A stretch of 64,000 nucleotides of DNA from Terriglobales bacterium (GCA_035567135.1 DATMQI010000112.1:51297-115296), one strand, 5' to 3'; numbered from the stretch's first letter, positions 21,854-40,374 are shown. A program made the numbers and translations. The notes: generated by a model from the sequence alone, not told the origin.

Positions 21854-22878
21854 TTCGCTGCTAACTGCGAAGCTTGAGAGAAGACGACGCCGATGTGTTC
21901 CAGCTCTTCTCGGGTCGGAGGGATATCGAGAATAAAGGTCAGAAACCCGCGTTCGATGTATTTCGCCAGCTCTGACGCAACGCGGTCGTAGCTTCCAACC
22001 AGGTAAGGACAGAAAGTTTTGTAGTTTTCAAATGGCCACAACCAGTACGCGCTGTTGTTGGTCTTGGTTTCGACAGCCATCTGAGAAAGTTGTTTGTGCC
22101 ATGCCGAGTCTGAGGTTTTCATGGCTAGCTGGTGGGTCAGTTGCCCTTTGCGATCGGCCGGAAACCGTGCTTCGGCGACAGTCCATGCTTGCTCTTCTGA
22201 TTCGCGAGCGATAACGCCGACCCGCATGCCTGATTTCATCCCGGACTGACGATTATCCGGTTCACAGGCCGCCGGTTGGGGATATTTGACCGCAAGAGCG
22301 CCGAGGGCAGCCGCGGCCGTCAAACCTGCCTCGGAAGAACCTGAAACGAAGACTCCCGGCATCAATTCAGGATCCAGGGGAGGAGTCAACCGAAGTTTGT
22401 CTACCACATAGAATTCGCCGTGGTAGCTCACCTGCGCATCACCTTTTAGCAATTCCTGAATAATGGTTGTATATTCGACGACACGGGCGTAGCGCTTGTC
22501 GTGTGGGGTGTTGTCATTGAGCGCAGCCAGGTCGTTCTTGAATCCGCCGGCTACCATGTTCAGATATACGCGGCGGCCGTAGAGGTGGCCCAGAGAGCTC
22601 ACCATCTTGGCTACCGCGTACGGATGCAGGTAGGCCGGTTGTACCGCAACCAATGGGCACAATCTCTGCGTGTTCTGAATGATGATTTGCGCTACTAGCC
22701 AGGGATCGACCAGCGAGTTGTCGGTGTAGATGAGAATTCCTTCGCATCCCGCTTCCTCGCTCCAGCGAGCTACATCGACGATATTTTGCAAGTAGGACTT
22801 GCGTTCCACAGCGCTCGATTGGGGCGCGGTAGCAAAAACACGCAGGTGGGTAAGGTGATGAGTACTACGGTTCATCAT
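21850..22878 (-). CDS. LLM-class (luciferase-like) flavin-dependent oxidoreductase
   Basis: TIM-barrel LLM pattern (ARWSEEAGCEGILIYTD..., LVAVQPAYLHPYAVAKMVSSLGHLYGRRVYLNMVAGG). Its stop overlaps the downstream ATG (ATGA at 21850-21853). Confidence 0.8.
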   Translation of the reverse strand: MMNRSTHHLTHLRVFATAPQSSAVERKSYLQNIVDVARWSEEAGCEGILIYTDNSLVDPWLVAQIIIQNTQRLCPLVAVQPAYLHPYAVAKMVSSLGHLYGRRVYLNMVAGGFKNDLAALNDNTPHDKRYARVVEYTTIIQELLKGDAQVSYHGEFYVVDKLRLTPPLDPELMPGVFVSGSSEAGLTAAAALGALAVKYPQPAACEPDNRQSGMKSGMRVGVIARESEEQAWTVAEARFPADRKGQLTHQLAMKTSDSAWHKQLSQMAVETKTNNSAYWLWPFENYKTFCPYLVGSYDRVASELAKYIERGFLTFILDIPPTREELEHIGVVFSQASQLAAK

Positions 22879-24909: not shown

Positions 24910-26004
24910 TTAGCGATGCAGCGACGACTCGGCCGGCGAGGTCTTCTTTTTTTGCCACGAGAACGATCGGTTGGTAAGCCTGCGATAACTTTCCCACACC
25001 GGAAGCGGGACAAATGAGTACGTAAGTGGAATGATGAAGTACCACACGCTGAGAATACGATACTTGATCCCGTCCCAGGCTCGCTCTGGTATCGAAGGCG
25101 TTTCTACGCTTCCTTCGAGCGATACCGGATACACTGGCCAGCCTCCATTCTCCTGTTCGCGCCACAGAGAAATGTAGCGTGCAATCTTAGCCTTCATTAC
25201 TGGCGAGAGGCTCTCCGAATTTCGTCGGAACCCGTGAATCTCTTTGCTCTTTACTAATGAATGGTGACCCGCTTCGTCGATCGCACTTCGATCGGCCCCA
25301 TCGAGTATCGTCATCCTCGAATCAAAAGGAATCCGCAAGAAGTCGCAAACGCCTTTCATGACCGCGGTTGGTTCGCTAACGAGCTCTTCGTAGTGAACTT
25401 GGTGAACTGGAAATCGGTGTCGCAGCAGCCAGTCGCACTCACGTTTCAACTTCCGATATCCCAGCAGGGCGCGAAGAGTGATTCCCTTGCGGCTGAAAAA
25501 CGTCCGTTCCTCGCCGGCCTTCGCGATACTTTGACAGATGCTGGTTAAGTCTCGCCAAATGATGATGAATCTTGCGTTCGGAAAAGTACCGGCGAGATGA
25601 GACAGCAGATCGAAGTAGGTGGGAGATTTGCCGCCCCAGATGGTCGCGCCTTTTTTTTGCTCGCAGTATTCCCGCTGCACTGCTTCTAACGCGCCCTTCA
25701 GGTCGTGGATATTTTCAGGGATGTGGCTGCTATCGATTTTGTGGCGTGTAATTGCGCCATTAAAAAAGTCCCACTTGGTAAGCCAGTTGGATGTCTTACG
25801 CCGCACCCAAAACAAAGGGCGCAAGAAAACAAGGTCGTCTTCGTACGTTAAGGCAATTTGTGGATGCTGATTCAACAAAGCGTATAACAATGATGTTCCA
25901 GATCGCCAGATTCCCACCACGAACAACGGCCCATCGGCAATTATCGCTGGCTCCTCGGCGTTTAGCCGAGCGGTTTCCACAGATGGCATCACGAGTTCGG
26001 GCAT
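24910..26004 (-). CDS. sulfotransferase-family protein (Sulfotransfer_3-like)
   Basis: PAPS loop FVVGIWRSGTSLLYALL and FIIIWRDLTSICQS, with a hydrophobic C-terminal segment. ATG at 26002-26004 (preceded by GAGG) preferred over the TTG at 26034. Confidence 0.75.
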   Translation of the reverse strand: MPELVMPSVETARLNAEEPAIIADGPLFVVGIWRSGTSLLYALLNQHPQIALTYEDDLVFLRPLFWVRRKTSNWLTKWDFFNGAITRHKIDSSHIPENIHDLKGALEAVQREYCEQKKGATIWGGKSPTYFDLLSHLAGTFPNARFIIIWRDLTSICQSIAKAGEERTFFSRKGITLRALLGYRKLKRECDWLLRHRFPVHQVHYEELVSEPTAVMKGVCDFLRIPFDSRMTILDGADRSAIDEAGHHSLVKSKEIHGFRRNSESLSPVMKAKIARYISLWREQENGGWPVYPVSLEGSVETPSIPERAWDGIKYRILSVWYFIIPLTYSFVPLPVWESYRRLTNRSFSWQKKKTSPAESSLHR

Positions 26005-26069
26005 TTGTGCCTCAAGTTTTTTTTGAGATTGCAACTCTATCTAAAATGTTGCCTGCGTCCTGCCCGGAC

Positions 26070-29000
26070 TTACAGGCTGGAGTCGCCGTCGAAGAAACTC
26101 GGATCCCAGGGCTCAGGTCTCTCTAGACGAGCCGCCAAGCGCTGGTTATTTGTCCGATAAAAATATCGCCAGGAGGCAAGTTCCCGATGATGCGGATTCA
26201 TACTTTCAATGATCCGCTGTTTCTCAGAGCTGAAGCCGACGGCTTCGAGAATATAGATGCCCTCGTCGTGGCACCTGCGCAATGCCTGGTACAGAATGGG
26301 TCTGAGCAATTCGCTCTTGCCCGGCTCTGCCTGCAGATCGACAAGGCGCATGCGCTTCAGCCCCAGCCCGGGATTGTCCTGCCGGCATACGATTCCGTAT
26401 GCGGCAAGGTCATCCCCGTTATTCACGCTCAGCACCCACGCATTGTTTTTCTTGAGAGCATTTCCAAAGTGCCACTCCAGCACCTCGCGCGAGCGGCAAG
26501 CCCGCAAACCGGACGAACTCTTTCGAACGCGGCTCCAGAATTGCTCAAAGCTCTCGTCAAAGTGCTTGGAGAAACGAACCTCGACTCCGTTTCGTCTGGA
26601 ATGCAGGGCCCGTCCGGTGAGAGCGTCTCGAAGGAACAGTCCGGCGGAGAGCGGGTAACTCAAGCCCGGCGCACCTGGGAACTCCCTCTTGTGAAGAAAA
26701 CTCATGGTGAAAGCGCGATAGTTGGTAATCCAGAATGAGGACCGGTCCCAGGCGCCTGCCGGAACTCGCAAGCATTGGAACATCTCTTGCAGCTTCGACG
26801 CTTTGGCGTTGACCGTAGTATTCAGAAACAGGTCAACATTCGGCTGGTTGAAAAACTCGCCGAGCAGAGCGAAAGAGTAAGGACGATAACGGGAATCGAC
26901 GACCAGAGAGCGGCTGGTGGCGACCAGCAGCGGTTCATCGTCGAACTCGTATAGCAGGGGAATGTTCGCAATTGATCCGACGATTTCCTGGTCGGCATTC
27001 TCGCATACCCAACCGATCGGCCATCGCGATGTTCGTTGATAAGCCGGGTTGCGGTTCCACAAATCGACCCATTCTTCATATTTCTTGGGCTGGAGCCCGT
27101 AACGGGATTCCAGGGCTGCAATTTGGGGATAGTCCTCGAATGTGAGTTCGCGCAGCTGCGGTGCAGCGGACTTAGAACCTCTTTTTGCCGATCGGGACAA
27201 CTCCTTGTCCATTTCGGCGTCTTTCAAACAGACTCGCAGCTTGTCGGCCAGCAAGTCGACATTCTCCTCATGGAACATGGACTCGTGTCCGCCCCGAATT
27301 TTATGAAGTTCCAAATCTCCGCCAATCATTCCATTCCAGCTGGCATGAAAATCCCAATAGCGGCCTTTGGGCCAGTCAGTGGATTGGAAGAACACCACGC
27401 GTCCCGGATACGGCTTCGGGCGATAGACAAATGAAGCCGGATGCACGATGTGCTCCAGATCTTCGAGTCGCTCGATGCTTACACGGCGGTGGAAGGCATG
27501 CAAAGCGCGCCAGTAGCGCACACTGAGACGACGGCGAACGCCAATGACTCGATCGGTGAGGAAATCGGCAAGTCCCGGCAAGCCGCTGCGGCGAAGATTG
27601 GAAAACTGGAATCCGACCCTTCTGCGCAACAACTCGCTCCGGCTTTCCTGCGAGAAGTCCTCGTAATAAGCGGGATTTTGCGCGTCGAAGACCACCAGGA
27701 GCGCAATTTCTTCTCCTTGCTCGATCAGTTGTCTGGCAATCTCGTAGGCGATGACCCCATTTACGCACAAGCCGGCGATAAAGTAGGGCCCTTTGGGTTG
27801 CACTTCCCGCATGCAGCGGAGCAGGGCTCCGGCAATGTCTTCGAGCTTATACGGAACCTGCAAACGCGCAGCCTCAGATGCCGGGAGATGGAGTCCCAAG
27901 AGCGGACGATCCGTGCCCAAGCGGTGAGCCAATGGAAGGAAGAGTGGCCCACCCCGAACCCAAAACAGCGGCGGCTTGGAACCTTCCGGCTGAATTGGAA
28001 CCACCGCGGGATGATGAAGGGGTATTTCCTGTCCGCCTACTAGCCCCGCCAATTGCCGAATCGTAGGCGCTTGGAATATGTTGGCCAGCGTGAGTGCCTT
28101 CCCCAATCGTTGCTCAATCCGGAGCAAGAGCTTGGCGACCAACAGCGAGTTGCCACCCAAATCGAAGAAATTGTCGGTGATGCCGATCTCTTGCTTGCCA
28201 AGAACCGCCTTCCAAACTTCCACCAGTTCGGACTGCAGGGCATTCTCTGGGGGAACAAATGTTGTTGCGGAGACCGTCTGTTCCGCTGTGAGAGCCTGGC
28301 GATCCAGTTTGCCGTTCGGCATCAAGGGCAAGGTTTCCATGGTTACAAATGCCGACGGCACCATGGGCTCCGGGAGCCTCTTGCTTAAAAAGCTGCGTAG
28401 CTTGTCCGAATCAAATTGCGTCGCATTGAGTGGCACAACGAAAGCAACCAGGCCGGGTTCACCTTCCTTGCCTTCACGCAGCGCCACCGCCACTTGCCGC
28501 ACTTCCGGATAGTCAGAAATTACCGCTTCAATTTCCTCCAGTTCGATTCGAAAGCCGCGAATCTTTACCTGATGATCGAGCCTTCCAAGGAGTTCCAGAG
28601 TGCCATCCGGCAGCCAGCGGACCAAGTCTCCAGTCTTATAAAGCCGAGCACCAGGAGTTCGCTGAAATGGATCGGCTATGAATCTTTCCGCGGTTTCCGC
28701 AGGGCGGTTCAGATATCCACGTGCGACGCCAGGTCCACCGACGTAAAGCTCGCCCGGCACACCGACTGGCAAAAGGTTCAAGTGAACGTCGAGCACATAC
28801 ACTTGAGCGTTTGGAATCGGACGACCGATCGGAACCAGCCTCGACGGCTGACCCGCTTCGCACCTGTGCACCGTACTCCACACGCTGGCTTCCGTGGGAC
28901 CGTATTCGTTGTACAGGGTGGCGGCAGGTAGCAGCCGATGATGACGCGCGACGAGCTCGGCAGGACAGCTTTCTCCGGCAACAATTGTCACCTTTAAGGA

Positions 29001-31307
29001 CGCCAATTCTTCCGGCTTTGCCTGATCCAATAGCAGGCTGTACAGGGACGGAACGCACAAAAGATGCGAAACGCGGTGCTGCGCAATCAGCGGCGCAAGT
29101 CGCGTCAAATTCCCCTGAAGCGGCCCTGGAGTTAGGACCAGAGATCCGCCGCGGCACAAAGTGCCAAAAATACCTACGAGCGAACTGTCAAAGGCAAATG
29201 ACGAGAGTAAAAGGAAGCGTCCGGCATCCGGCCCGTAGTAAATTGAGCGGGCGTAGGTGGAGTGAACCAGATTACGATGCGTAATCTGGACTCCTTTCGG
29301 TTTGCCGGTTGAGCCCGAGGTGTAGATCACATAGGCTAAGTTCTCGGGTCCAGCTTGACTGGACACCGGTGTCGTGCTTTCCCCTTCCACACGCGCCCAT
29401 TCCGAGTCCAAACACAGAACTTCGACGTCGTCCGCAACGGGCAACTCTGCTTTCAGATGTTGCTGGGTCAGGAGCACATGAAGCTGAGTGTCGGCAAAGA
29501 CATGTTGCAGCCGTTCGGCGGGATACGTGGGATCCAACGGTACGCATGCCCCGCCGGATTTCAGCACCGCCAGAATCCCGACAATCATTTCGGATGAGGG
29601 CTCGACGAACAGCCCAACCGGGATCTCAGGACCAACGCCGTGCTGTTGAAGGTACGCCGCCAATTGATTGCTTCTGCGGTCGAGCTCAGCATAGGTCAAC
29701 TGTCCGCGGCCATCGACGACAGCCTCGGCATCAGGAGCCCGTTTGACCTGATCTACGGACAAGTCGTGCAGGCGAAGATGTGCTGGAAATGTGGCGCTAG
29801 TGGCATTCCAGTCTACGCAGAGCTGCTGGCGCTCCTGCGCCGAAAGGATTGGCAGAGCGGAGACATGCTGGTCCGGATTCGCGCAGGCACTCTCCATGAG
29901 CAACGTAATATGCTCCGCCATGCGAGCGACCGTTTCAGGTTCAAATAGATCAGTGCTGTACTTGAAGCGCCCCACGATGCCGGAGGGACGGTCATCCAGT
30001 TCGAGGCACAAATCAAACTTGGAAATTCCGGTGTCAACCTCCGACTGGGTGAGAGCCACACTCCAACCATCGTGCGACTGAGGCATCGGTGGTTCCAGGG
30101 TCAATAACACCTGGAACAGTGGATTGAAGCTCAAGCTACGATTCGGGCGTACGGCGTTCACCACCTGGGTAAACGGAGCATCGTCATTCGATAAAGCATC
30201 CAGGGTCACGTTGCGCGTGCGGCGCAGCAATTCGCGGAAGGTGGGATCACCCGCCAAGTCGTTTTGCAGAACGACCGGATTCATAAAGTATCCCAAAAGG
30301 CCTTCCAACTCGGAGCGCTTGCGTCCGGAGCTCACCGTTCCAATGGCCACGTCATCGCGCGCAGAATAGCGATGCAGGAGCGCGGCAAAGCCAGTCAGCA
30401 GCGTCATAAACAAGGATGCGCCTTCTTGCCGACTCAATACCTTCAAGGCGTCAGCCAGGTTTTTGGACAGGGAGACGGGGTGAATTGCACCGCGGAAACT
30501 CTGGATTGCGGGACGGAGATGGTCGTAGGGCAGCTGCAGAGCAGAAGGATTCGCACTAAGCCGCTCCCGCCAGTATGCCAATTGGGAAGATAGCCGTCCG
30601 CCGCGAGGAAGCCATTCCCGCTCCCAGATGGCGTAGTCCGAATACTGGATTGGCAACTCGGGCAGAGGTGACGCTTCTCCTCTAGAAAAGGCCGTGTACA
30701 GAGCAGCCAACTCGGGCAGAAGTACCCGGTAAATCGAGTAGCCGTCGAAAATAATGTGATGAAGGGTTAAGAACAGACGATGTTCAACGTCGCTGAGCCG
30801 GACCAATAAAACGCGGAACAGCGGCCACCGGGACAAATCAAAGGGACGCATCGCGTCTTCGACCGCCAAGCGATGTGCTTCTGATTCTCGTTCCGCGGCT
30901 GGGAGTTGACTCAGGTCGACAAAAGGTACGGCCACCGGAGCCGGTGGGCCGATCAACTGGACGGGTTCGGCTTCGGCCAGAGTAACGGTAGTCCGCCAGG
31001 CCTGGTGCCGCCGTACGATTTCGGTCAGGGCGAGTTCCAGGGCATGTACATCCAACGTCCCCTGACGATGGATGGTCACCGGTTCGTTGTAAACCGGGAT
31101 GCCGGGAACCATCTGCGTGTGCAGCCAAATCTGTTGCTGCGCGAACGACAGGGGTGCCGTATCGCCGTTGGCTCGACGCGTGACCGCGTTCGTAACCGCC
31201 AGTTTGGCAGTCGACGCCGTGGTAGGTTCCTTAACTTGTGCTATGTTGCCCATCTTGGGGGAGTCGCCGTGAGTCAGTTCCAACCCACTCGCGCTACTTC
31301 GGGGCAC
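26070..31307 (-). CDS. non-ribosomal peptide synthetase, C-A-T-TE plus C-terminal tandem-GNAT-like domain
   Basis: C domain: LSFAQQQIW and HHIIFDGYS. A domain: LAYVIYTSGSTGKPKGV, FAFDSSL, NEYGPTE, GELYVGGPGVARGY, YKTGDLVRW, KIRGFRIELEEIE and PNGKLDR. T domain: FFDLGGNSLL. TE domain: YFIAGLCVNG...VVFDA...GGHESMF. A further 361-aa extension follows. The start could be 31307 or the ATG 54 nt downstream. Confidence 0.9.
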   Translation of the reverse strand: MPRSSASGLELTHGDSPKMGNIAQVKEPTTASTAKLAVTNAVTRRANGDTAPLSFAQQQIWLHTQMVPGIPVYNEPVTIHRQGTLDVHALELALTEIVRRHQAWRTTVTLAEAEPVQLIGPPAPVAVPFVDLSQLPAAERESEAHRLAVEDAMRPFDLSRWPLFRVLLVRLSDVEHRLFLTLHHIIFDGYSIYRVLLPELAALYTAFSRGEASPLPELPIQYSDYAIWEREWLPRGGRLSSQLAYWRERLSANPSALQLPYDHLRPAIQSFRGAIHPVSLSKNLADALKVLSRQEGASLFMTLLTGFAALLHRYSARDDVAIGTVSSGRKRSELEGLLGYFMNPVVLQNDLAGDPTFRELLRRTRNVTLDALSNDDAPFTQVVNAVRPNRSLSFNPLFQVLLTLEPPMPQSHDGWSVALTQSEVDTGISKFDLCLELDDRPSGIVGRFKYSTDLFEPETVARMAEHITLLMESACANPDQHVSALPILSAQERQQLCVDWNATSATFPAHLRLHDLSVDQVKRAPDAEAVVDGRGQLTYAELDRRSNQLAAYLQQHGVGPEIPVGLFVEPSSEMIVGILAVLKSGGACVPLDPTYPAERLQHVFADTQLHVLLTQQHLKAELPVADDVEVLCLDSEWARVEGESTTPVSSQAGPENLAYVIYTSGSTGKPKGVQITHRNLVHSTYARSIYYGPDAGRFLLLSSFAFDSSLVGIFGTLCRGGSLVLTPGPLQGNLTRLAPLIAQHRVSHLLCVPSLYSLLLDQAKPEELASLKVTIVAGESCPAELVARHHRLLPAATLYNEYGPTEASVWSTVHRCEAGQPSRLVPIGRPIPNAQVYVLDVHLNLLPVGVPGELYVGGPGVARGYLNRPAETAERFIADPFQRTPGARLYKTGDLVRWLPDGTLELLGRLDHQVKIRGFRIELEEIEAVISDYPEVRQVAVALREGKEGEPGLVAFVVPLNATQFDSDKLRSFLSKRLPEPMVPSAFVTMETLPLMPNGKLDRQALTAEQTVSATTFVPPENALQSELVEVWKAVLGKQEIGITDNFFDLGGNSLLVAKLLLRIEQRLGKALTLANIFQAPTIRQLAGLVGGQEIPLHHPAVVPIQPEGSKPPLFWVRGGPLFLPLAHRLGTDRPLLGLHLPASEAARLQVPYKLEDIAGALLRCMREVQPKGPYFIAGLCVNGVIAYEIARQLIEQGEEIALLVVFDAQNPAYYEDFSQESRSELLRRRVGFQFSNLRRSGLPGLADFLTDRVIGVRRRLSVRYWRALHAFHRRVSIERLEDLEHIVHPASFVYRPKPYPGRVVFFQSTDWPKGRYWDFHASWNGMIGGDLELHKIRGGHESMFHEENVDLLADKLRVCLKDAEMDKELSRSAKRGSKSAAPQLRELTFEDYPQIAALESRYGLQPKKYEEWVDLWNRNPAYQRTSRWPIGWVCENADQEIVGSIANIPLLYEFDDEPLLVATSRSLVVDSRYRPYSFALLGEFFNQPNVDLFLNTTVNAKASKLQEMFQCLRVPAGAWDRSSFWITNYRAFTMSFLHKREFPGAPGLSYPLSAGLFLRDALTGRALHSRRNGVEVRFSKHFDESFEQFWSRVRKSSSGLRACRSREVLEWHFGNALKKNNAWVLSVNNGDDLAAYGIVCRQDNPGLGLKRMRLVDLQAEPGKSELLRPILYQALRRCHDEGIYILEAVGFSSEKQRIIESMNPHHRELASWRYFYRTNNQRLAARLERPEPWDPSFFDGDSSL
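26073..27155 (-). other. C-terminal tandem GNAT-fold (FemAB/CelD-like) domain fused to the NRPS
   Basis: Residues 1385-1745 of the NRPS align end to end with the stand-alone ORF 31340..32551. 28 of the first 60 aligned residues are identical by my count. Both end in the same terminal motif, WDPSFFDGDSSL versus WDPSCFDGDASL. Confidence 0.75.
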
Positions 31308-31339
31308 TGCTGAGTCGAGTACAAAATCTTCACTGGATT

Positions 31340-32551
31340 TTAGAGGCTTGCGTCACCGTCGAAACATGAGGGATCCCAAACTTCTGGATTTTTCAGGATC
31401 TCGGCCAACTCGGGGTTCGCGGTCTTGTAAAAATAGCGCCAAGATGAAAGAACGCGCTTGTGCGGCAAAAGACTATCGATGACACGCTGCTTCTCCGGGG
31501 CAAAGCCCATGGCTTCCAACATATGAATGCCCTCCCTCCGGCAGCGTTCGAAGGCATGACAAAGTAACGGTCTGAGAAGTTCCGTCTGCCCGTTGAGTGC
31601 CTGAAAATCCACCAGGCGTACTCGCTTCAGCGAAAACAACGGGTTGTCCTGGCGAAGGAAAACCGCGTAGGCAGATAATTTCGAGCCCTCGCTGAGGGTC
31701 ATCACCCAGGCCCGGCCGTCTGCCAAAGCGTGCTTGAAATGCCAATCCAGCATCGGCTGGGAGCGATTGGCCAGAAGGCGGTCCGGAGAACTCTTACGCA
31801 ACGTTTGCCAGAAGTCTTCAAAACGTTCGTCAAGTTTGGTGCAGAAACTGGGTTCCAAACCATTGCGGCGTATTCTCAGCGTCCGGCCTTCGAGAGTGTC
31901 GCGAAGAAAGAGGCCCGCCGACAAAGGATAATGGAGCAGCCCTTTCGCTTCTCGCATTTCCTTTCTTGCCAGCAGACTCGCACTGAAGCCTTTGTAGTTT
32001 GTGATCCAAAAGAAAGCTTGATCCCATATTCCCGCGGGCACGCGCCGGGCACGAAAGATTTCGTGGGCCTTCAATGCACCGGGTCCGACAGTAGTATCGA
32101 GAAATAGATCGACTTGTTTCTGGTTGAAGAACAAACTTAAGAGCGGTACAGAGTAGCTTCGATAACGTTCATCGACTACCAAGCCACGAGTGGATGTAAC
32201 AATCACATTGCGGCTGCCCAACTGGTAGCAACGCGGAAGATTCCCAATATAGCCGACCACGCGGTTATCTTCGTTTTCCAGCAACCAGCCGATGGGCCAA
32301 TTCGGAAGACTCTGGCACGCAGGATTGTCCGCCCACAGATGGATCCACGCTTCGCTCGTCTCCGTCTCCATGCCGTAGCGAGCCTGCAGTTCGGAAATCT
32401 GCCGATAGTCGTCAAACCTGACCTGACGGAACCGGACGCTGGATTTGGGGACGGGGTCAGTTGGCACACCATCCGCCGGAACCTTCATCGCCTCGAGTCC
32501 GCCCACCGCGTTCGCACTCGCTTCTTTTGAAAACATCTGCGGTTCAGTCAC
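31340..32551 (-). CDS. stand-alone tandem GNAT-fold (FemAB/CelD-like) acyl/aminoacyl-transferase
   Basis: GNAT-like cores VVGYIGNLP...GLVVDERYRSYSVPLL and LSAYAVFLRQDN...RVRLVDFQAL...FERCRREGIHMLEAMGF. Its GTG start shares one nucleotide with the P450 TAG stop. An alternative ATG is at 32536. Confidence 0.7.
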   Translation of the reverse strand: MTEPQMFSKEASANAVGGLEAMKVPADGVPTDPVPKSSVRFRQVRFDDYRQISELQARYGMETETSEAWIHLWADNPACQSLPNWPIGWLLENEDNRVVGYIGNLPRCYQLGSRNVIVTSTRGLVVDERYRSYSVPLLSLFFNQKQVDLFLDTTVGPGALKAHEIFRARRVPAGIWDQAFFWITNYKGFSASLLARKEMREAKGLLHYPLSAGLFLRDTLEGRTLRIRRNGLEPSFCTKLDERFEDFWQTLRKSSPDRLLANRSQPMLDWHFKHALADGRAWVMTLSEGSKLSAYAVFLRQDNPLFSLKRVRLVDFQALNGQTELLRPLLCHAFERCRREGIHMLEAMGFAPEKQRVIDSLLPHKRVLSSWRYFYKTANPELAEILKNPEVWDPSCFDGDASL

Positions 32552-33834: not shown

Positions 33835-35715
33835 TCAGTCCGCGGAAATTTCGGTGGTTAAGATGCGTTCGATTTCGAACGACAGTTCCGCTGCTGTCGG
33901 CGAATCGAAGACCATCCGCAGCGGAAGCTCGATGCCGAAAATATTTCGGACTCGCGCAATCAACTGCGTGCCCAACAAGGAATGTCCACCCAGAAAGAAG
34001 AAATTGTCATTTACGCCCACCTTCTCCAACCCAAGCAGTTCAGCCAGAATGGAAGAGATTTGTTGCTCCACAGGCGTGCGCGGAGAGAGATAAACTTCGT
34101 CCCCGATCGTATCCACCGGGGTCGGTGCTGGAAGCGCTGCGTAGTCAACCTTGCCGCTGGATTTCAAGGGCAAGGAATCGAGTCGCACAAAAACCGGCGG
34201 CACCATGTAGTCGGGCAGTTGGGCACGCAGGTGTTCCTGAAGCGCGCCCCGGGTGAGCTGAGGATCGGAGCTGACCAGGTAAGCCACCAGCCGTTTGTCG
34301 GCGCCATTGTCTGCTCGCGCCACAACCACGCTGGTTTGCACTCCGGGATATTGGTTCAAGAGACTCACGATTTCGTTAGGCTCAATGCGATATCCGCGGA
34401 TTTTGATTTGCTCATCCTTTCGTCCGAGGAAAGCAATCTGCCCATCCGGCAGGTAACGCGTTAAGTCGCCGGTACGATACAGACGGTCGTTGGGCAAGCT
34501 GCTGAATGGATTGAGAACAAAAGCCTCCGCGTCTTGCTCCGGACGATTCAAATATCCCCGCGCCAGACCAGCGCCTCCAATGCATAACTCCCCGACGGCG
34601 CCAACTGGGACCTGCTGCAGATCATCATCCAAAATGTAAGTCTGCACGTTGTCGATAGGACGTCCGATTGTCGGCTGACGATCCGGGCGCTTATCTGACG
34701 AGACCTGACCGGAGGTTGCAACAACAGTGCATTCGGTCGGACCGTAGTTGTTAATCAGGGAAAATGGCAAGTTCCCCGCAGGATACCGATGCAGCGTGTC
34801 AGCCCCAGTCAGCAGCACGCGAAGTGATGTCTGGGCCGGCCAGTCTAACCCCAGAAGACTTTCCGCCATCGGGGTAGGAACGAATCCGATGGTGATTCCT
34901 TGAGCCAGCAGCCAGTCGCGTAGGTTTCTGGCGACTCCGCGCGTCGCATCATCCGCAAAGATGACAGCGGCACCGGCAGTCAGGTAGGGCCAGATTTCCC
35001 AAACGGCTGCATCGAAACCGAAGCTTGCGACCTGACTCGCTCGGTCGGCTCCAGTAACCGAGAAAGCCCGGCGATGCCAGTAGATCAAATTAAGCAGTCC
35101 GGCGTGGGTGATCTGAACAGCTTTAGGCTGACCCGACGATCCCGACGTATAAATCACATACGCAAGGTTCTGGGCGTTGACAGACACAGCCGGTGCGCTC
35201 CGCGGCGGAGTGGCCACGTCCGCATCTCCCTCGTCCATGATCAAGACTTGCCAATCACCGGCAGGCAAAGTCCGCGCGACCTGCGCGTCTGTGATGAGGA
35301 CGCGAAGTTGTGTGTCGCGCAGCATGAATTCCAAACGGCGCACCGGGTAATCGGAATCCATAGGCACGTAGGCTCCGCCCGCCTTCATTACGGCCAGCGC
35401 GGCGACTACCATTCCCGGCGAGCGCGGCAGGCAAATTCCTACCAGCGCTTCCGGACCTACTCCGAGAGACTGTAGATTCTGGGCAAGTTGATTCGCCCGG
35501 CACTCGAGTTGATGGTAGGTCAGGGTCCGGCTATCCGATTTAAGGGCAAGTGCGTCCGGTGTTGCTCTTGCCTGTTCGCTAACCAAATCCGACACAAGCG
35601 ACTCGCGAGGATAGTCACGAAAGGTATTGTTCCAGGCATGGGATGGCATCTCGGTCGGATGCACCGATGCCATTCCGTCAGTAGGGGAGTTCGAAGTGGT
35701 TATTTGCGGCTTCAA
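33835..35715 (-). CDS. stand-alone NRPS loading didomain, A-T (predicted Leu)
   Basis: A-domain cores LAYVIYTSGSSGQPKAV, FGFDAAVWEIW, NNYGPTECTVVAT, GELCIGGAGLARGY, YRTGDLTRY, KIRGYRIEPNEI and SSGKVDY. T domain FFFLGGHSLL. The start is uncertain (TTG 35715, ATG 35673 or ATG 35649). Confidence 0.9.
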   Translation of the reverse strand: MKPQITTSNSPTDGMASVHPTEMPSHAWNNTFRDYPRESLVSDLVSEQARATPDALALKSDSRTLTYHQLECRANQLAQNLQSLGVGPEALVGICLPRSPGMVVAALAVMKAGGAYVPMDSDYPVRRLEFMLRDTQLRVLITDAQVARTLPAGDWQVLIMDEGDADVATPPRSAPAVSVNAQNLAYVIYTSGSSGQPKAVQITHAGLLNLIYWHRRAFSVTGADRASQVASFGFDAAVWEIWPYLTAGAAVIFADDATRGVARNLRDWLLAQGITIGFVPTPMAESLLGLDWPAQTSLRVLLTGADTLHRYPAGNLPFSLINNYGPTECTVVATSGQVSSDKRPDRQPTIGRPIDNVQTYILDDDLQQVPVGAVGELCIGGAGLARGYLNRPEQDAEAFVLNPFSSLPNDRLYRTGDLTRYLPDGQIAFLGRKDEQIKIRGYRIEPNEIVSLLNQYPGVQTSVVVARADNGADKRLVAYLVSSDPQLTRGALQEHLRAQLPDYMVPPVFVRLDSLPLKSSGKVDYAALPAPTPVDTIGDEVYLSPRTPVEQQISSILAELLGLEKVGVNDNFFFLGGHSLLGTQLIARVRNIFGIELPLRMVFDSPTAAELSFEIERILTTEISAD

Positions 35716-35845: not shown

Positions 35846-37618
35846 TTAATCGGTAAATACCGGAAGGGATGCGTCCTGACCGGTACGCAACATTCCGGTG
35901 GGAGAGTGCTGCGAAGCTGCTCCTTTATGGTGTGGATGGTGAATCTTAATGCCATCCGGAAATGGGTAAGGCTCGCTGAGAAACCAGGTAAATCGGTTTG
36001 CGGTTTCGTCGAACAAGAAGCCTGAGGACATCCAGAACTTTAAACAAGGCTTGTTCTTGGAGGTTGGAAGATATTGGGCCCGCAACTCCTTCAGGCCTGC
36101 GCCTGCGCAGCATTGGACTGCGAACGCAACAATCGCCTTCTCCACATTTCGGCCCATGACGCGGCAGCTCAGTACAAAGTCCGAGATATACGCCACGTCA
36201 GAATCCAGATCCAAGCTGAGGATGCCGGTCAGTCCGGAGTCACCAAACTTATCCTTGACCCTGAAAGCCCACAGCTTCCGGTTGCCGGCTTGCAACCACG
36301 CCTGCAGTTCCTGTTCCGACACTCTTCGTGTCGATAGATTCATCTGGTTGGTTTTATTCATCAACTGGACCACGCGGACGCGATCCGCATCGCCCAACTC
36401 CTCGACTGTAACTTCGGTATCGAGAGAGCGCAGCCACTCCTCGGCGGAACTGACTTCTTTACCCGACAACTGCCGGCGCTTCTCTGCGGCGTACATTTCA
36501 TTGCGGGAGATGTCTTCGGACGTCGCATACGCGGAATCGAAGCAGTCCAATTCCAGAAGCTGGCTGGCAAACAAAGTCTTGTCATCGGGCCACTCAGGTA
36601 CCAGGACTTCGGGAAGGGCCTCCCGGACCCGGGCGCGCTCCACCGGATTGTCATCAATGAACACTGCCGAATCCAGCCCTAAATTCAATTCCGCGGCGAG
36701 CTCGGCGATATTCGCTGCTTTATCGTTCCAGTTGATCCGGTAGGCCGCGAAGTCATGCAATCGCAAAACCATTTCCGGATGTTTGGCCAGTGCCTCCAAC
36801 GCGACACTTTCCTCATTCTTGCTGACAATGGCCAGCAGAATTCCTCGATTGCGAAGGCCTTTAAGAGCTCTCTGGAAATCGAGATACGCCTCGCCCAAAT
36901 AATCGTGCCCGCCCAGACGGAGATTCTGCCATCCCAGATCGCCAACAACTCCGCCCCACAATGTGTTGTCTAGATCAACGATGACGACCTTTTTGGACGC
37001 CCCCAAGACCGCGGAAATTGCGGACTTCACATCTGCCGCAGCTCGTCGGAATACCTCAGCATGAAACGGCGTTTTCGTCAGATACCACAACTTCGCGCTA
37101 TAGGAATTTTTGCCCACCATTTCCATCCAGCGCTGACCGTCGAGCAGGTAAATGCTGCCGCAACTCTCCAGCTCTTCGGCAAGTTTCAAATTCATTTTAA
37201 GCAACAGCTTGCGCAACCCCTGTCCCTTCAGGCTCAGGATTCCGTTTCCACGCAGGTGAAGGGGAATCGTCCAGGACACGACGAACACTGCGCGAAAATG
37301 CTTCTGCGCCTCGCGCAAGCAATCCGCGAACTGCCGGATCTCAGCAAAGATGCGATCCTCAGAAACTGCCACGCCATTGAGCGCGTCAGGAAAAGTGGGA
37401 ACGATCTTCTCCGCTGATGTCCACACCAGGGCAAAATCGGTAGCTTGAGCATGGGCCGGCTGGAGCAACGCCGGAAAGACTTGCCCAAAGGGCGCAACCG
37501 AAACGGAGAGCTGAGGTGATGCGCCACCGTTCGCGAGATAATGACCGAGCGTTTCGAGATTGAAATCGGAAATAAGGTGCAACTTCAAACGGGTGCTCTC
37601 CGTGTCGGCAGGGTTCAT
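35846..37618 (-). CDS. FkbH-like HAD-IIIC phosphatase/acyl-loading enzyme
   Basis: Hallmark VVIVDLDNTLWGGVVGD, ILLAIVSKNEESVALEAL and AVFIDDNPVERARV, plus a C-terminal acyltransferase-like region. The size (590 aa) is typical of FkbH-family proteins. Confidence 0.8.
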   Translation of the reverse strand: MNPADTESTRLKLHLISDFNLETLGHYLANGGASPQLSVSVAPFGQVFPALLQPAHAQATDFALVWTSAEKIVPTFPDALNGVAVSEDRIFAEIRQFADCLREAQKHFRAVFVVSWTIPLHLRGNGILSLKGQGLRKLLLKMNLKLAEELESCGSIYLLDGQRWMEMVGKNSYSAKLWYLTKTPFHAEVFRRAAADVKSAISAVLGASKKVVIVDLDNTLWGGVVGDLGWQNLRLGGHDYLGEAYLDFQRALKGLRNRGILLAIVSKNEESVALEALAKHPEMVLRLHDFAAYRINWNDKAANIAELAAELNLGLDSAVFIDDNPVERARVREALPEVLVPEWPDDKTLFASQLLELDCFDSAYATSEDISRNEMYAAEKRRQLSGKEVSSAEEWLRSLDTEVTVEELGDADRVRVVQLMNKTNQMNLSTRRVSEQELQAWLQAGNRKLWAFRVKDKFGDSGLTGILSLDLDSDVAYISDFVLSCRVMGRNVEKAIVAFAVQCCAGAGLKELRAQYLPTSKNKPCLKFWMSSGFLFDETANRFTWFLSEPYPFPDGIKIHHPHHKGAASQHSPTGMLRTGQDASLPVFTD

Positions 37619-37625: not shown

Positions 37626-38000
37626 CTATAGGGCTCCGCCCTGCCTCTTGGCGGTCAATTCCAGAATGTAGGTCGCCAGTGAGTGTATGTTTCTAAAATG
37701 GCCGGTGGTGGGCGAAAATGGATCGTCTTCTGTAAGATCGATTCGAAAGCCGTAGCGCTCTTCCAATTTTTGTTCGGTGATCACGATAAAATTGGCAAGG
37801 CCCAGGGAATCCAGCTTCCCGCCTCCGCCGAAGAGTATTGTGGATAAAGACTTGACGATTTGTTGTTGCGCCGGCAACTGCATATTCAGATCAGAAACCG
37901 ATTCGTAGATGACCTGTAGCACACCATCTAGATCGCTTGCGCGGCTGGTCGACGGTTCTTTGATCAACGACTCCAAGGACTTAGTTCCTTCCATAGTCAT
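37626..38000 (-). CDS. acyl carrier protein (dedicated to the FkbH-like enzyme)
   Basis: GGGKLDSLGLANFIVITEQKLEERYG carries a DSL phosphopantetheine-site motif. Its start overlaps the 3' end of the deacetylase gene by 20 nt. The FkbH gene starts 8 nt downstream. Confidence 0.7.
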   Translation of the reverse strand: MTMEGTKSLESLIKEPSTSRASDLDGVLQVIYESVSDLNMQLPAQQQIVKSLSTILFGGGGKLDSLGLANFIVITEQKLEERYGFRIDLTEDDPFSPTTGHFRNIHSLATYILELTAKRQGGAL

Positions 38001-38793
38001 TTCTCATCCTCCAGAGTTGAAAAAGCGTTCCGTTCGTCACTTTTGAAATATTTTGATGCTGGGAGATCATCTGGAAGACAGTTTCTAACTGCTGCCACTG
38101 TCCAAGTTCCTCGATTTCCCAGCTGTGCAAATACAAGTGGGCAATGCCACCGTGCTGCTCCACATGGTTGAGGCCGCACAGAAAGTGTTGTTGCCAATCG
38201 GTGCTGCCGTTATAAGTGCGTACGAAATTCAGAATCCCGGCAAAATTGCCTTCCAGAACCGCGTGCCGTAGTTGCATGACCTTGCTATGCGAATAAGCGT
38301 GAGTGCTGACTCCCCACAAAAAAGGATTGCGCGGGAATGCATGCAGATTAAAAAGACAGGTGCGTCCGCCGAGGAATCCGGCCTTCTTCACCAGCGCCGG
38401 AGTTGAGGCATTGAACTTGCCTCGGGGATAGCAGAACGAAATCACGCTCTTTCCAATTGTATCTTCCAGCCACTGCTTGCCCTCTGAGATTTCGGTCCAT
38501 GCCTGGGAATCGGGCAGAGACTTCAGGGGTGCGTGATTCAAGGTATGAGCGCCGACTTCGAAACTGGCGGACAGCCCCCGCACTTGGTTGGCGGGCATCA
38601 CCGGACGTTCAGGATTTCGCGCCGGGATGTAGAAGGTCGCCTGCAATCCATATTTGTTCAGCAGTTCCGCGGTCCGTAGATCGGTAACATCGCCGTCGTC
38701 GATACTGATCGTTACAAAGCTGTGTGCGCTGGCATCCGTTTGCGGCTTCCCCAATTGGTTATTATTGCCGTTATTGCGCGCCTTTGTATTCAC
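37981..38793 (-). CDS. polysaccharide deacetylase (CE4/NodB homology)
   Basis: Motif 1 TISIDDGD, motif 2 VGAHTLNH, and later CYPRG. Its GTG start overlaps the upstream TGA (GTGA at 38790-38793). Confidence 0.85.
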   Translation of the reverse strand: MNTKARNNGNNNQLGKPQTDASAHSFVTISIDDGDVTDLRTAELLNKYGLQATFYIPARNPERPVMPANQVRGLSASFEVGAHTLNHAPLKSLPDSQAWTEISEGKQWLEDTIGKSVISFCYPRGKFNASTPALVKKAGFLGGRTCLFNLHAFPRNPFLWGVSTHAYSHSKVMQLRHAVLEGNFAGILNFVRTYNGSTDWQQHFLCGLNHVEQHGGIAHLYLHSWEIEELGQWQQLETVFQMISQHQNISKVTNGTLFQLWRMRNDYGRN

Positions 38794-40034
38794 GCTGGCG
38801 GTACCTCTTCTGGTACCTGAACCGGCAAAGCGGTACCGAATAGGTCCGGCGAGGACACTCGCCCCGCGACAACGTCACGGTAAATTCGCAGCAACTGCAG
38901 ATAGTTTGCGGTCGCTGTGTATTTCCTTTCGTACTCCTTGCGCGCCTGCTCCCCGAGCAAGCGCATGTACTCTGGACGATCCCACGCATTTGCTGCCGCG
39001 CGCGCAAGCTGTGCCGCATCTCCCGGTGGGAAAAACATGCCGGTACGGCCTTCTTCGATGATTTCCTGCATAGCGCCTAGATGAGAAGCCAGTACCGGCA
39101 CACCGCAGGCGAACGCTTCGATAATGGTGAGCGGAAGGTTTTCATATAGCTCGCTGGGGAAGACCACAAAGCGTGCGCCCTTCATGGCCTCGATCACCTT
39201 GTCGCGAGGTTGCATGCCCAAGAAAGAAACATTCGAAAGGCCATGAGCAGCCGCTTCGCGCTCCAATTCTAATCGGGCCGGGCCATCTCCAATTACTCGT
39301 AAGGCACAGGTTCGCGGCAGCTGCTTCCAGGCTCTCAGCAGCGTCGGAGTTCCCTTTTCCTGCGATACTCGCCCCACGCAAAGCGCATAGGACCCTTCCC
39401 CGGTTCGTACACCCGGATCCGGATCCACGCAGTTTCCTTTTACTGTGATCTTTTCTGCCGGTAAGCCAGCCTTCACGAATCGGCTGCGCGCAAATTCCGT
39501 CAGCACAATGTAGCGATCGACCATGCGGTGCCAGGTCTTGCGGGCATGGTGCAGCGATAGCATCAGCGCAACCGGGGCCGTTTCCATTCGCGAGTCGCGA
39601 TAGCATCCGTGTTGCACTCCGTGCCAGAAACTGCCCCCGATACAGTCCTCGCAAGTCTTGCCTGCGCGGAAGAAATTCGCGCCCGGACAAAACAAACGAT
39701 AGTTGTGCAATGTCTGCACGACGGGAACGCGCTGGTTCCGGCATGCCCAATAGACGGACGGTGAAATCAGCGGGAACGTATTGTGAATGTGGACGATCTC
39801 AGGCTGGATTTGCCGAAGAAGAGCGCCAAATTCACGGTAGGTGTCGTCGGCCCAAACCGTTCGGGCCAGAAGGCTGACGCGCCTCGTCGTCGAGTACGAC
39901 TTAATTTCACTGTTGTGGCGCTGATATTCCAAAACTTCGTGACCAGCCGCCTTCAGCAAACCCTTTTCTTGTTCAAAGACGACGTCTTCGCCACCCCGAT
40001 ACTGGTACGTATTGTGAACGAGTAGAATCTTCAT
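38790..40034 (-). CDS. GT4-family glycosyltransferase
   Basis: MKILLVHNTYQYRGGED N-terminus and a GT-B C-terminal E-x7-E-like region (FVVFPSELYENLPLTIIEAFACGVPVL). Start moved to the ATG at 40032-40034. Confidence 0.85.
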   Translation of the reverse strand: MKILLVHNTYQYRGGEDVVFEQEKGLLKAAGHEVLEYQRHNSEIKSYSTTRRVSLLARTVWADDTYREFGALLRQIQPEIVHIHNTFPLISPSVYWACRNQRVPVVQTLHNYRLFCPGANFFRAGKTCEDCIGGSFWHGVQHGCYRDSRMETAPVALMLSLHHARKTWHRMVDRYIVLTEFARSRFVKAGLPAEKITVKGNCVDPDPGVRTGEGSYALCVGRVSQEKGTPTLLRAWKQLPRTCALRVIGDGPARLELEREAAAHGLSNVSFLGMQPRDKVIEAMKGARFVVFPSELYENLPLTIIEAFACGVPVLASHLGAMQEIIEEGRTGMFFPPGDAAQLARAAANAWDRPEYMRLLGEQARKEYERKYTATANYLQLLRIYRDVVAGRVSSPDLFGTALPVQVPEEVPPA

Positions 40035-40374
40035 CTTGCCAGTATCTGCGACCGATGCCGCTCGCAGCTTCGCCCCCTGAGTCACAGTGCAAACCCGAAA
40101 AGCGAAAACCCCGGAACGACGAATTCTACTCGCGACGCTCTTTAACCTTGAATAGAGAAACGTGTTTTTTAAGGGGAAGGGCGTTTGTTACAAGTCGTTC
40201 AGGTTCGCGTTAGCCGGCCATACCGGACCTAAGCTCTAGTGGCTGCAGGATATACATCCCGGCAAGCCCTTGCAAGAGTCAAAAGCTTAGAGTCCAGAGT
40301 CTCTAGTCGTCATGCCGCTCATCCCCGGGCCGGTGCGAGAGTAACTCACGCCCCTACTAACACATGGCCCATGA

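Follow-up and report, generated by a model that had tools for sequence, protein, structure and literature searches.

The window analysed here, a 64,000-nucleotide stretch of Terriglobales DNA, encodes two related proteins with a tandem-GNAT fold, one of which (X2) forms the C-terminus of a nonribosomal peptide synthetase (NRPS) and the other (X1) a stand-alone neighbour. On the basis of the fusions and genomic linkage of this family, designated X, we propose that it takes acyl or peptidyl groups off carrier proteins and delivers them to a sugar amine freed by a deacetylase, following the logic of Nod-factor synthesis within a Wzx/Wzy locus, and we assign this reading a probability of about 0.55.

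An NRPS termination module with a C-terminal extension

The NRPS-X2 ORF (26070..31307, minus strand, as are all domains within it) encodes 1745 aa, comprising C-A-T-TE and a 361-aa C-terminal extension. The condensation (C) domain (29820..31163; residues 49-496; PF00668, E 3.5e-92), with an intact HHIIFDG motif, is followed by an adenylation (A) domain (28308..29753; residues 519-1000; PF00501 and PF13193, AMP-binding (+C)), a peptidyl carrier (T) domain with the serine of GGNSL (28038..28229; residues 1027-1090; PF00550, E 6e-16) and a thioesterase (TE) (27243..27944; residues 1122-1355; PF00975). The domain order, the HHxxxDG motif, the serine of T and the catalytic triad of the TE together identify an NRPS termination module. 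The triad next to X2 consists of Cys1181 (AGLC1181VNG, codon 27765-27767), Asp (VVFDAQ) and His (GGHESMF), the nucleophile being Cys rather than Ser. Its GLC(V/I)(N/D)(G/A) motif, Asp and His are conserved across 26 related loci, and the other TE in the window has GGFSFGG instead; among PDB sequences, the TE matched nothing more specific than generic TEs of NRPSs and PKSs. Read by eye, the Stachelhaus-type code is DSVLIAEVWK for the A domain of C-A-T-TE and DAWGLGNVVK, tentatively Leu-like, for that of the neighbouring A-T protein.

The last 390 or so residues of the protein (1356-1745) are without a Pfam match. They comprise a linker (27156..27242; residues about 1356-1384, KDAEMDKELSRSAKRGSKSAAPQ...) and X2 itself (26070..27155; residues 1385-1745 plus the stop codon). 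The stand-alone paralog X1 (31340..32551, minus strand; 403 aa), whose start overlaps the stop codon of a P450 gene, is identical to the database protein P0001, a 'hypothetical protein' from a Terriglobales MAG. By BLASTP, the NRPS tail (nt 26073-27200) aligned end to end with X1, as had been predicted, with 194/364 identities (53%), 2 gaps and an E value of 2e-141, a similarity far beyond chance. The similarity of the first 60 aligned residues was also borne out, the number of identities being 27 on recount and not 28, and all of the reported shared blocks are present, with FFWITNY reading SFWITNY in the fused copy. Both proteins terminate in WDPS[FC]FDGD[SA]SL followed by a stop, and the similar DNA strings described for the two 3' ends map to + strand positions 26082 and 31352. 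The original prediction regarded the stand-alone gene as a duplicate of the extension; the history is likely the reverse, as the stand-alone form is the common state. A recent tandem duplication was ruled out, since X1 and X2 differ this much in protein, share only about 56% identity in DNA and belong to two distinct clades, both represented by orthologs across many genomes. Both clades are old and paralogous to each other.

An assembly-made fusion was also ruled out. A second strain carries the same fusion (99.45% nucleotide identity, 29 SNPs, no gaps or indels), which is also found in nine species-representative genomes whose X parts are 50-87% identical. The fused gene is uninterrupted in the MEGAHIT and Logan assemblies, and a TE-X fragment, 72% identical, occurs in a JGI metagenome; a SPAdes contig contains the first 3.7 kb of the gene and ends before the TE-X junction. 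The TE-GNAT architecture therefore recurs among relatives. In other relatives, C-A-T-TE and X2 are adjacent genes with a stop codon between them. At the position of the linker, the split orthologs have a stop and an ATG, or a change of frame, where the fused orthologs read through, and the two forms alternate among close relatives. Judging from these sequences, the fusion likely arose through loss of the stop codon between the adjacent genes.

Fold and conservation of X

AlphaFold (AF2) models of X1 (pLDDT 84.5) and X2 (pLDDT 90.6, pTM 0.87) each contain two consecutive GNAT folds in a single chain. Foldseek searches against the PDB placed N-myristoyltransferases (NMTs) on top for both copies (E 1e-14 to 5e-14, approximately 380-400 aligned columns), with TM scores of 0.50-0.58 (0.53-0.58 and E 5e-14 for X2) and about 12% identity. 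The predicted tandem-GNAT nature of the extension and of the stand-alone ORF is thus upheld. An unnamed acetyltransferase of B. anthracis, 3n7z, was also among the top 50 matches (E 1.9e-12, TM 0.55); the top 50 matches listed consist of NMTs and 3n7z, with no Fem proteins among them.

No model in Pfam or NCBIfam matched X1, X2 or 47 relatives at curated thresholds. FemAB (PF02388) matched 0/47 family members, and the PEP-CTERM FemAB-like model TIGR03019 gave no match, nor did any NCBIfam model at E<=5. The sole recurrent Pfam signal, Acetyltransf_6 (PF13480), was sub-threshold: 13.6 bits on X1 (E 0.078; gathering cut-off 22 bits), no match on X2, and E<5 in 22/47 relatives (best 6.6e-4). Acetyltransf_9 matched six of the 47 weakly, and the NMT models (PF01233/PF02799) matched one of the 47 at E 0.22, so that X does not join the NMT family by sequence. 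Searching PDB sequences with a single X sequence returned nothing, and a profile search returned only AAC(2') GNATs (E 0.25, 44 residues). The label 'FemAB/CelD-like' is thus not supported, the best structural matches being NMTs with 3n7z close behind.

These results bear on whether X might be a Fem/PacB-like transferase that uses aminoacyl-tRNA to place an amino acid on a sugar amine or a carrier-bound intermediate. FemX and the aminoacyl-tRNA transferases share the tandem-GNAT architecture with X, and the weak Acetyltransf_6 similarity points the same way; however, the lack of matches to the FemAB and NCBIfam models and the absence of Fem proteins among the structural matches listed argue against such an enzyme, which would moreover duplicate the work of the dedicated A domains nearby. 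We therefore consider it very unlikely.

Among 128 divergent members (34% mean identity), D315 is invariant, W392, D398, G399 and D400 each reach 95% conservation or more, and the chain end is fixed in 109/128, with W..P..DGD-x-S-L being near-invariant; the last three residues of the AF2 models have pLDDT < 50. In NMT the C-terminal carboxylate is the catalytic base, and the near-invariant C-terminus suggests that the chain-end carboxylate of X may likewise take part in catalysis, which would explain why X is the last domain in every fusion. Conservation also speaks to the view that X2 no longer catalyses anything, or serves in docking or self-resistance, and was recently fused by accident. 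The alternation of fused and split forms would suit this view, but the fused and stand-alone copies conserve the same residues and the fusion has been kept in the nine genomes and the second strain, and we regard it as highly improbable.

Genomic context and a proposed mechanism

The X family comprises 1252 clusters at 50% identity, its named members all being 'hypothetical protein', and almost all of the 76 loci examined belong to Acidobacteriota. An A-domain, ACP or FkbH homolog lies within 10 kb of X in 62 of the 76; in the other 14 no carrier system was found among homologs of the window genes, and a KS lies directly upstream in two of these. X directly follows FkbH, P450, C or C-A-T-TE, and three cassettes recur: CE4-ACP-FkbH-X (L010, L013, L019, L020, L032, L077 and L061; L014 has ACP-FkbH-X without CE4), A-T/P450/X and C-A-T-TE-X. 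In L079, an unknown gene, A-T, P450 and X are joined by overlapping gene junctions, with no C or TE domain. In the minimal cassettes (CE4-ACP-FkbH-X and A-T/P450/X), no candidate release enzyme other than X is present. Independent fusions of three kinds, namely C-A-T-TE-X (the window, the nine genomes, P0154 and P0156), KS-ACP-X (P0211, in two assemblies) and CE4-X (P0188, P0316 and P0317), place X at the extreme C-terminus every time, and among proteins related to P0188 in its CE4 part, many are fusions of GT4 with CE4. The deacetylases preceding X are non-homologous: CE4 genes occur in 35/76 loci, and in L075 a PIG-L deacetylase overlaps the start of X. In L083, X lies in a FAAL/desaturase/KS context in which acyl-ACP is expected.

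In the window, a GT4 glycosyltransferase gene (38790..40085; PF00534; this and the following genes up to the sulfotransferase are on the minus strand) lies immediately upstream of a CE4 polysaccharide deacetylase (37981..38793; PF01522), the proposed maker of the free sugar amine; its DD and HxxxH metal motifs are intact and it has no signal peptide, pointing to a cytoplasmic setting. Next come a small acyl carrier protein (37626..38000; DSL motif, weak ACP match) and an FkbH-like glyceryl-ACP-forming enzyme (35846..37618; TIGR01686 FkbH, 282.9 bits, cut-off 146.65), a conserved pair, and then a stand-alone A-T didomain for aminoacyl loading (33835..35715; PF00501 and PF00550). The adjoining cytochrome P450 (32551..33789; PF00067) has as its best PDB relative BioI (E 7e-84), which acts on acyl-ACP, and a P450 adjoins the A-T gene in 49/76 loci. 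Directly downstream of the NRPS-X2 gene is a sulfotransferase (24910..26034; PF13469), as is the case after X2 in about 20 loci. A stand-alone A protein (20156-21853) matched TIGR03098 below cut-off. The locus also encodes Wza, Wzz, Wzy, an initiating sugar transferase of the Bac_transf family, glycosyltransferases and three sulfotransferases.

From this arrangement we infer a donor, an acceptor and an order of events. X would bind the phosphopantetheine-thioester end of a loaded carrier as other GNATs bind acyl-CoA, and would catalyse aminolysis of the thioester by a sugar amine. The neighbouring GT4 would have placed that sugar, and the neighbouring deacetylase (CE4 here, PIG-L in one relative) would have freed its amine in the cytoplasm. 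The substrate of X1 would be the glyceroyl unit that FkbH makes on the small ACP, the aminoacyl unit of A-T after P450 modification, or both. X2, tethered behind T-TE, would off-load the dipeptide assembled by A-T and C-A-T. Sulfation or methylation of the acylated sugar would follow, and then polymerisation and export via the locus's own Wzy/Wzz/Wza. Genomic linkage and the fusions are what suggest the carrier-borne acyl-S-phosphopantetheine as donor. The idea of off-loading from carrier to sugar amine, already part of the original prediction, is clearly strengthened by CE4-X, KS-ACP-X and the cassettes without another release enzyme, although the catalytic function is deduced from context; a counterpoint to direct T-to-X2 transfer is that the intact Cys-TE between the two has no evident role in that scheme.

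An alternative hypothesis is that X is an acyl-CoA-dependent N-acyltransferase that re-acylates the deacetylated sugar and is chemically unconnected to the carriers, with the NRPS fusion only co-localising tailoring steps. The GNAT fold is in keeping with this, the NMT structures matched are crystals with myristoyl-CoA bound, and CE4-X fusions make sense without a carrier. In addition, the N-terminal half retains part of the CoA pyrophosphate loop R/Q-x-x-G-x-G/A, with R131 in 125/128 members, S/A at +3 (the first Gly position) and a hydrophobic residue at +5, so an acyl-CoA donor is also possible; the C-terminal half is without this motif. However, X comes right after a carrier in three independent kinds of fusion or adjacency (T-TE-X, KS-ACP-X and ACP-FkbH-X), and the hypothesis leaves A-T/P450/X and ACP-FkbH-X without an enzyme to release the carrier-bound unit, making it unlikely. 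X might instead cap the alpha-amine of a carrier-bound amino acid or peptide in an NMT-like manner, using acyl-CoA or glyceryl-ACP, with the TE freeing the capped product. This would account for the intact TE between T and X2 and for the position of X1 between A-T/P450 and a C domain that would take the capped donor, and the closest structures are N-terminal peptide acyltransferases. Yet glyceryl-ACP in ACP-FkbH-X and the acyl-ACP expected in a fatty-acyl context (KS-ACP-X; L083) have no amine and cannot be N-capped by X, some cassettes are without a TE or C domain, and the CE4-X and PIG-L/X associations indicate a sugar amine as acceptor; such capping is therefore quite unlikely.

Related systems and implications

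Searches of the open-access literature found nothing on the X family, TE-GNAT architectures, or NRPS/FkbH in acidobacterial EPS loci. The closest structural relatives, the eukaryotic NMTs, are also single-chain tandem GNATs of about 370-400 aa, and the strictly conserved chain end of X is reminiscent of their catalytic C-terminal carboxylate. However, X occurs in bacteria, in the company of genes for carrier proteins and polysaccharides, its donor is probably an acyl-S-carrier instead of myristoyl-CoA, and its acceptor probably a sugar amine instead of a peptide. The multi-GNAT protein 3n7z, called only an acetyltransferase in its PDB entry, we take to be Eis-like. Eis acylates amines of amino sugars and its C-terminus sits in the active site; unlike X, it contains an SCP2-like domain as its third and takes acetyl-CoA as donor, and X showed no significant sequence match to these proteins.

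The proposed off-loading to sugars most resembles the NodB/NodA/NodF-NodE pathway, in which a cytoplasmic CE4 frees the GlcN amine, an N-acyltransferase loads it from a dedicated ACP and a KS makes the acyl chain; sulfotransferases and methyltransferases come after, and all these gene types flank X. NodA probably belongs to a family distinct from X. Unlike the Nod system, X donors would include NRPS aminoacyl or peptidyl units and FkbH glyceryl units, and where Nod enzymes build a chito-oligosaccharide signal, X would presumably act on the repeat unit of an EPS.

FemAB/FemX, PacB, Acetyltransf_6 (CelD/BcsL) and TIGR03019 proteins share the tandem-GNAT architecture with X and act as acyltransferases on amino groups of envelope precursors. 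The CE4-X fusion in L085 has a context that resembles PEP-CTERM EPS loci, in which genes for a FemAB-like protein, an ACP, an acyl-CoA ligase and a deacetylase occur together. Fem and PacB differ in their use of aminoacyl-tRNA, and we know of no Fem/PacB/CelD-type protein fused behind T-TE. The PIG-L/X pair in L075 recalls mycothiol synthesis, in which the PIG-L deacetylase MshB precedes MshD, a tandem GNAT; MshD, unlike the proposed X, uses acetyl-CoA. In DltA/DltC D-alanylation an NRPS-type A enzyme and a carrier decorate an envelope polymer, but through MBOAT and DltD proteins outside the cell. BtrH of the butirosin pathway moves an ACP-bound acyl group to an aminoglycoside amine and is not known to be a GNAT. 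GNATs of CurA-type loading modules also act on a pantetheine thioester in an assembly line; they are single, N-terminal and chain-initiating, whereas X is tandem and at the extreme C-terminus, after the TE.

Off-loading of carrier-bound chains onto sugars by X, if it occurs, would couple the chemistry of NRPS, PKS and FkbH enzymes directly to the Wzx/Wzy assembly of polysaccharides, and the tandem GNAT would be an added release mechanism of assembly lines beside TE, R and CT domains. X would then be a candidate enzyme for N-aminoacyl and N-glyceroyl sugar modifications; the genetic basis of N-glyceroyl pseudaminic acid has been described as unresolved (PMC5378307). Well over a thousand clusters of sequences (the 1252 of the X family) would thereby gain an annotation. 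Genome-mining tools may score X loci as peptide metabolite clusters where the real product may be a decorated polysaccharide. The slime polymers of Acidobacteriota, which rank with the most abundant bacteria of soils, are chemically little explored. We tentatively suggest, as possible rather than probable, that X represents a new class of release domain, in which a tandem GNAT resembling NMT terminates pathways of the NRPS, PKS and FkbH/ACP kinds through an amide link between the chain and a de-N-acetylated sugar of the nascent EPS repeat unit, with the Cys-TE maybe serving X2 as a thioester relay; many soil Acidobacteria would then make peptide- and glyceroyl-decorated sulfated EPS non-ribosomally.

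The C-terminal extension of the NRPS is a predicted tandem GNAT

The 1745-aa NRPS encoded by the ORF at 26070..31307 (minus strand) carries Pfam domains for Condensation (residues 49-496), AMP-binding plus AMP-binding_C (519-1000), PP-binding (1027-1090) and Thioesterase (1122-1355), that is, a C-A-T-TE module, while its last ~390 residues showed no Pfam match. This tail, termed X2 (26070..27155, minus strand), aligns end to end with the product of the adjacent 403-aa ORF, X1 (31340..32551, minus strand), with 194 of 364 residues identical (53%, E 2e-141) and two gaps of one residue each. The end-to-end resemblance in the original prediction was thus confirmed; its sequence blocks and common C-terminal motif were all found, and its two DNA strings were located at 26082 and 31352. 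Of the first 60 aligned residues, 27 rather than the claimed 28 are identical. The stop codon of the P450 gene and the GTG start of X1 share one base (32549-32553), suggesting translational coupling. As residues 1-33 of X1 are predicted to be disordered, the true start may lie downstream of this GTG.

X, the family containing both copies, gave nothing significant against Pfam, NCBIfam or PDB sequences. Among 47 relatives, the sole recurrent signal was Acetyltransf_6, below cut-off in 22 (best E 6.6e-4); a few matched Acetyltransf_9 and Acetyltransf_7, one matched the N-myristoyltransferase (NMT) model (E 0.22), none matched FemAB, and no NCBIfam model, TIGR03019 included, was matched. The label "FemAB/CelD-like" was corrected on these grounds, and X should be filed under none of FemAB, TIGR03019, Acetyltransf_6 or NMT. 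The proposed GNAT fold, in contrast, was borne out: the AlphaFold2 models of X1 (47 sequences; pLDDT 84.5, pTM 0.82) and X2 (60 sequences; pLDDT 90.6, pTM 0.87) each consist of two consecutive alpha/beta GNAT units. N-myristoyltransferases made up essentially all of the best 50 Foldseek matches in the PDB (E 1e-14 to 1e-12, TM 0.50-0.58, 360-415 columns, ~12% identity); the B. anthracis acetyltransferase 3n7z (E 1.9e-12), which we take to be Eis-like, was also among them. Therefore, by its predicted fold, X is a tandem GNAT of the NMT architecture type, outside every curated family.

An exhaustive search placed 1252 representative clusters (50% identity) in the family at E<=1e-3 and 394 at E<=1e-30; all named members are annotated as "hypothetical protein". 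The 76 related loci surveyed by tblastn with the window proteins are nearly all from Acidobacteriota (Terriglobales and Bryobacterales), where a single genome often has several paralogs. In the tree, X2 (after C-A-T-TE) and X1 form sister clades, and X1 clusters with the copies behind FkbH (the glyceryl-ACP-forming enzyme) in CE4-ACP-FkbH-X loci, where CE4 is a polysaccharide deacetylase; the earlier framing of the stand-alone gene as a duplicate needed correction.

Conservation was computed over 128 representatives with a mean column identity of 34%. D315 is invariant, and R131, W392, D398, G399 and D400 reach 95% conservation or more. The CoA loop R/Q-x-x-G-x-G/A is kept in part, with R131 present and S/A at the first Gly position. 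The chain ends exactly three residues past D400 in 109 of the 128 and one residue later in eight others. NMT, and reportedly Eis as well, uses its chain-terminal carboxylate in catalysis, and the fixed, conserved C-terminus of X fits such a mechanism. Our hypothesis is that the terminal carboxylate of X would likewise take part in catalysis, which would explain why X accepts only N-terminal fusion partners; the last three residues are of low confidence in the models.

Origin of the fusion and other fusion partners

The junction between TE and X could in principle have been made by assembly. A Terriglobales MAG protein in the database matches X1 at every residue, and the long NRPS gene call recurs on independently assembled contigs carrying X1: two ENA MEGAHIT assemblies give 1745 aa and a Logan assembly gives 1737 aa. 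One SPAdes contig stops within the NRPS gene, upstream of the TE-X junction. Two of the independent assemblies come from another strain (99.45% identical across all 5238 nt, 29 mismatches, no gap), and P0079, a contig-truncated JGI protein, is 72% identical over the TE C-terminus, linker and X. Other genomes with the fusion were sought and found: nine of the 76 species-representative loci (L006, L012, L017, L018, L023, L025, L027, L028 and L030) contain a stop-to-stop frame of 1733-1815 aa ending in X, with 50-87% identity in the X part, and the exhaustive search added two C-A-T-TE-X representatives, P0154 and P0156. In at least 13 other genomes, C-A-T-TE and X are neighbouring separate genes; some of these split forms have an in-frame stop with an ATG directly after it (e.g., "...EEVS*MEKVISK..."), and others change frame exactly at the site of the window's linker. 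Fused and split forms are interleaved inside one clade of the neighbour-joining tree. Given the uninterrupted gene in independent assemblies, the relatives, the split junctions and the interleaved tree, C-A-T-TE-X is therefore a biological fusion through stop-codon loss, which probably happened repeatedly.

Degraded copies were also observed: in L009 (15392-15554), only the last ~55 residues of an X2 are detectable behind an intact C-A-T-TE, and in L077 (10001-11123) the X gene is broken into two matches. Pseudogenes or indel errors in long reads may account for them.

Two other fusion architectures were read from the best 150 of the 1252 representatives. P0211 (L083, 8001-11507) is a KS-ACP-X protein (PP-binding 717-778, X 810-1168) present in two assemblies; its neighbours are two fatty-acid desaturases, an ACP and a DIP2-like AMP-binding enzyme that we read as a fatty acyl-AMP ligase, and no polysaccharide genes were seen within 8 kb. 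Its X may release a modified fatty acyl chain onto some amine. P0188 is a CE4-X protein (CE4 64-215, X 298-663), an architecture that recurs at full length in P0316 and P0317 (85% and 78% identity), the latter in an EPS locus that also encodes Wza, an AMP-ligase, AsnB-like enzymes, ACP, Wzc, Wzx, Wzy and glycosyltransferases. Among proteins P0327-P0390, many that are closely related to the CE4 part of P0188 carry a fused GT4 glycosyltransferase (GT4-CE4, ~700-750 aa), a layout echoed in the window, where the GT4 and CE4 genes overlap (37981-40085). X forms the C-terminal end of every fusion, with the alignment reaching the final residue.

A polysaccharide locus and its cassettes

A polysaccharide locus of the Wzx/Wzy type makes up the window, its genes almost all on the minus strand. 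It encodes a Wza-like exporter (59296-60018), Wzz/GNVR (57677-59299), an initiating sugar transferase of the Bac_transf family (55144-56595) and Wzy_C (48209-49759). Methyltransferases, a GH39-like protein, RmlD and epimerases, and a WecG-type glycosyltransferase are also present. Sulfotransferases are encoded at 49825-50748, 24910-26034 and 9369-10274 (all minus strand), and three such genes in one polysaccharide locus suggest a heavily sulfated polymer; one of them gives a weak NoeE-like match, NoeE being a Nod-factor sulfotransferase. A second NRPS-like protein, A-T-TE (52324-55125, minus strand), has an ordinary GGFSFGG serine, adjoins the initiating sugar transferase and may serve another carrier-dependent decoration of the same polysaccharide. 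In several related loci its homologs precede a conserved unannotated protein (50815-52254, minus strand; 479 aa), which, like a 458-aa protein (46815-48191, plus strand), has no Pfam match; the two occur in 14 and 11 of the 76 loci, respectively, often as tandem duplicates. A triad of luciferase-like monooxygenase (LLM), stand-alone DltA/TIGR03098-like adenylating enzyme and formyltransferase (19224-22878, minus strand) is conserved downstream of X2 in ~20 loci, with no obvious cognate carrier protein. Two very large secreted-type proteins (40375-46361, minus strand), one with ASH/Cep192/HYDIN-like Ig domains and the other with NHL repeats, have homologs flanking X genes in many related loci.

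Around X the gene order is GT4 - CE4 - ACP - FkbH - A-T - P450 - X1 - C-A-T-TE-X2 - sulfotransferase. The CE4 has no signal peptide and retains the DD and HxxxH motifs, and the ACP has the serine in DSL. Across the 76 loci, an A-domain, ACP or FkbH homolog lies within 10 kb in 62, P450 occurs in 49, CE4 in 35 and polysaccharide machinery in 43. Besides the window's complete arrangement, the recurrent modules comprise GT4-CE4-A-T-P450-C-A-T-TE-X2-sulfotransferase-LLM-A-formyltransferase, CE4-ACP-FkbH-X without NRPS, A-T-P450-C-X-C-A-T-TE, X-A-T-P450-C and A-T-P450-X. In L079, an unknown-A-T-P450-X operon has stop codons that overlap the next start and encodes neither a C nor a TE domain; in L075, the gene of a PIG-L family deacetylase overlaps the start of X behind three GT2 genes; and in L070 and L063 the gene immediately upstream of X encodes a FabF-like KS.

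Carrier-bound donors and sugar-amine acceptors

The most economical model, to which we assign a probability only slightly better than even (about 0.55) and whose catalytic steps we infer, is that X uses a carrier-bound donor and a sugar-amine acceptor. GT4 would attach an N-acetyl-amino sugar, a cytoplasmic deacetylase would strip its acetyl group, and X would put in its place a group bound to a carrier protein through a phosphopantetheine thioester. This group would be glyceroyl from FkbH/ACP or a P450-oxidised aminoacyl from A-T, or alternatively a dipeptidyl from A-T plus C-A-T, or a fatty acyl for KS-ACP-X. GNATs normally bind the pantetheine arm of acyl-CoA, and T and ACP substrates ride on the same arm, so that the switch of donor would be chemically small. 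A carrier-bound donor is proposed because X stands behind or is fused to carriers, because it is the sole conceivable release enzyme in several cassettes, and because two of the carrier-bound units present no amine for X to act on; a sugar-amine acceptor is proposed because two unrelated deacetylase families accompany X, one of them also in fusion with it. Off-loading onto a sugar, as originally guessed, survived every test run and is strengthened by the independent fusions, its catalysis staying at the level of what we infer.

For X2 in particular, the model is weakest over the role of the preceding TE, which has a Cys nucleophile (A-G-L-C-V-N-G; Cys1181, codon at window 27765-27767). This Cys is conserved with Asp and His in 26 related loci, mostly where X2 follows, whereas the window's other TE and most TEs without X2 behind them have the usual G-x-S-x-G; L038, L045 and L051, however, have Cys-TEs although no X2 follows. 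Cys-TEs occur in NRPSs that form beta-lactones and beta-lactams (ObiF, SulM). Before X2, the Cys-TE might act in a thioester relay, in editing of mis-loaded chains or in an alternative linkage.

NMT is closest to X by fold, whereas NodB/NodA/NodF-E of Nod-factor synthesis and MshB/MshD are closest by the proposed logic; the Dlt system, BtrH and PEP-CTERM EPS loci (with their set of FemAB-like protein, deacetylase, ligase and ACP) show a looser likeness. To our knowledge, assembly-line GNAT domains are single and belong to loading modules, and full-text searches of the open-access literature found no tandem GNAT behind a TE. N-glyceroyl amino sugars occur in bacterial glycans, and their genetic basis has been described as unresolved for N-glyceroyl pseudaminic acid (PMC5378307). 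Taken together, X is a tandem-GNAT family that is real and conserved and had escaped annotation until now; its fusion to the NRPS terminus is genuine and recurrent. X represents a GNAT acyltransferase whose architecture is new, with off-loading domain as its probable new role.
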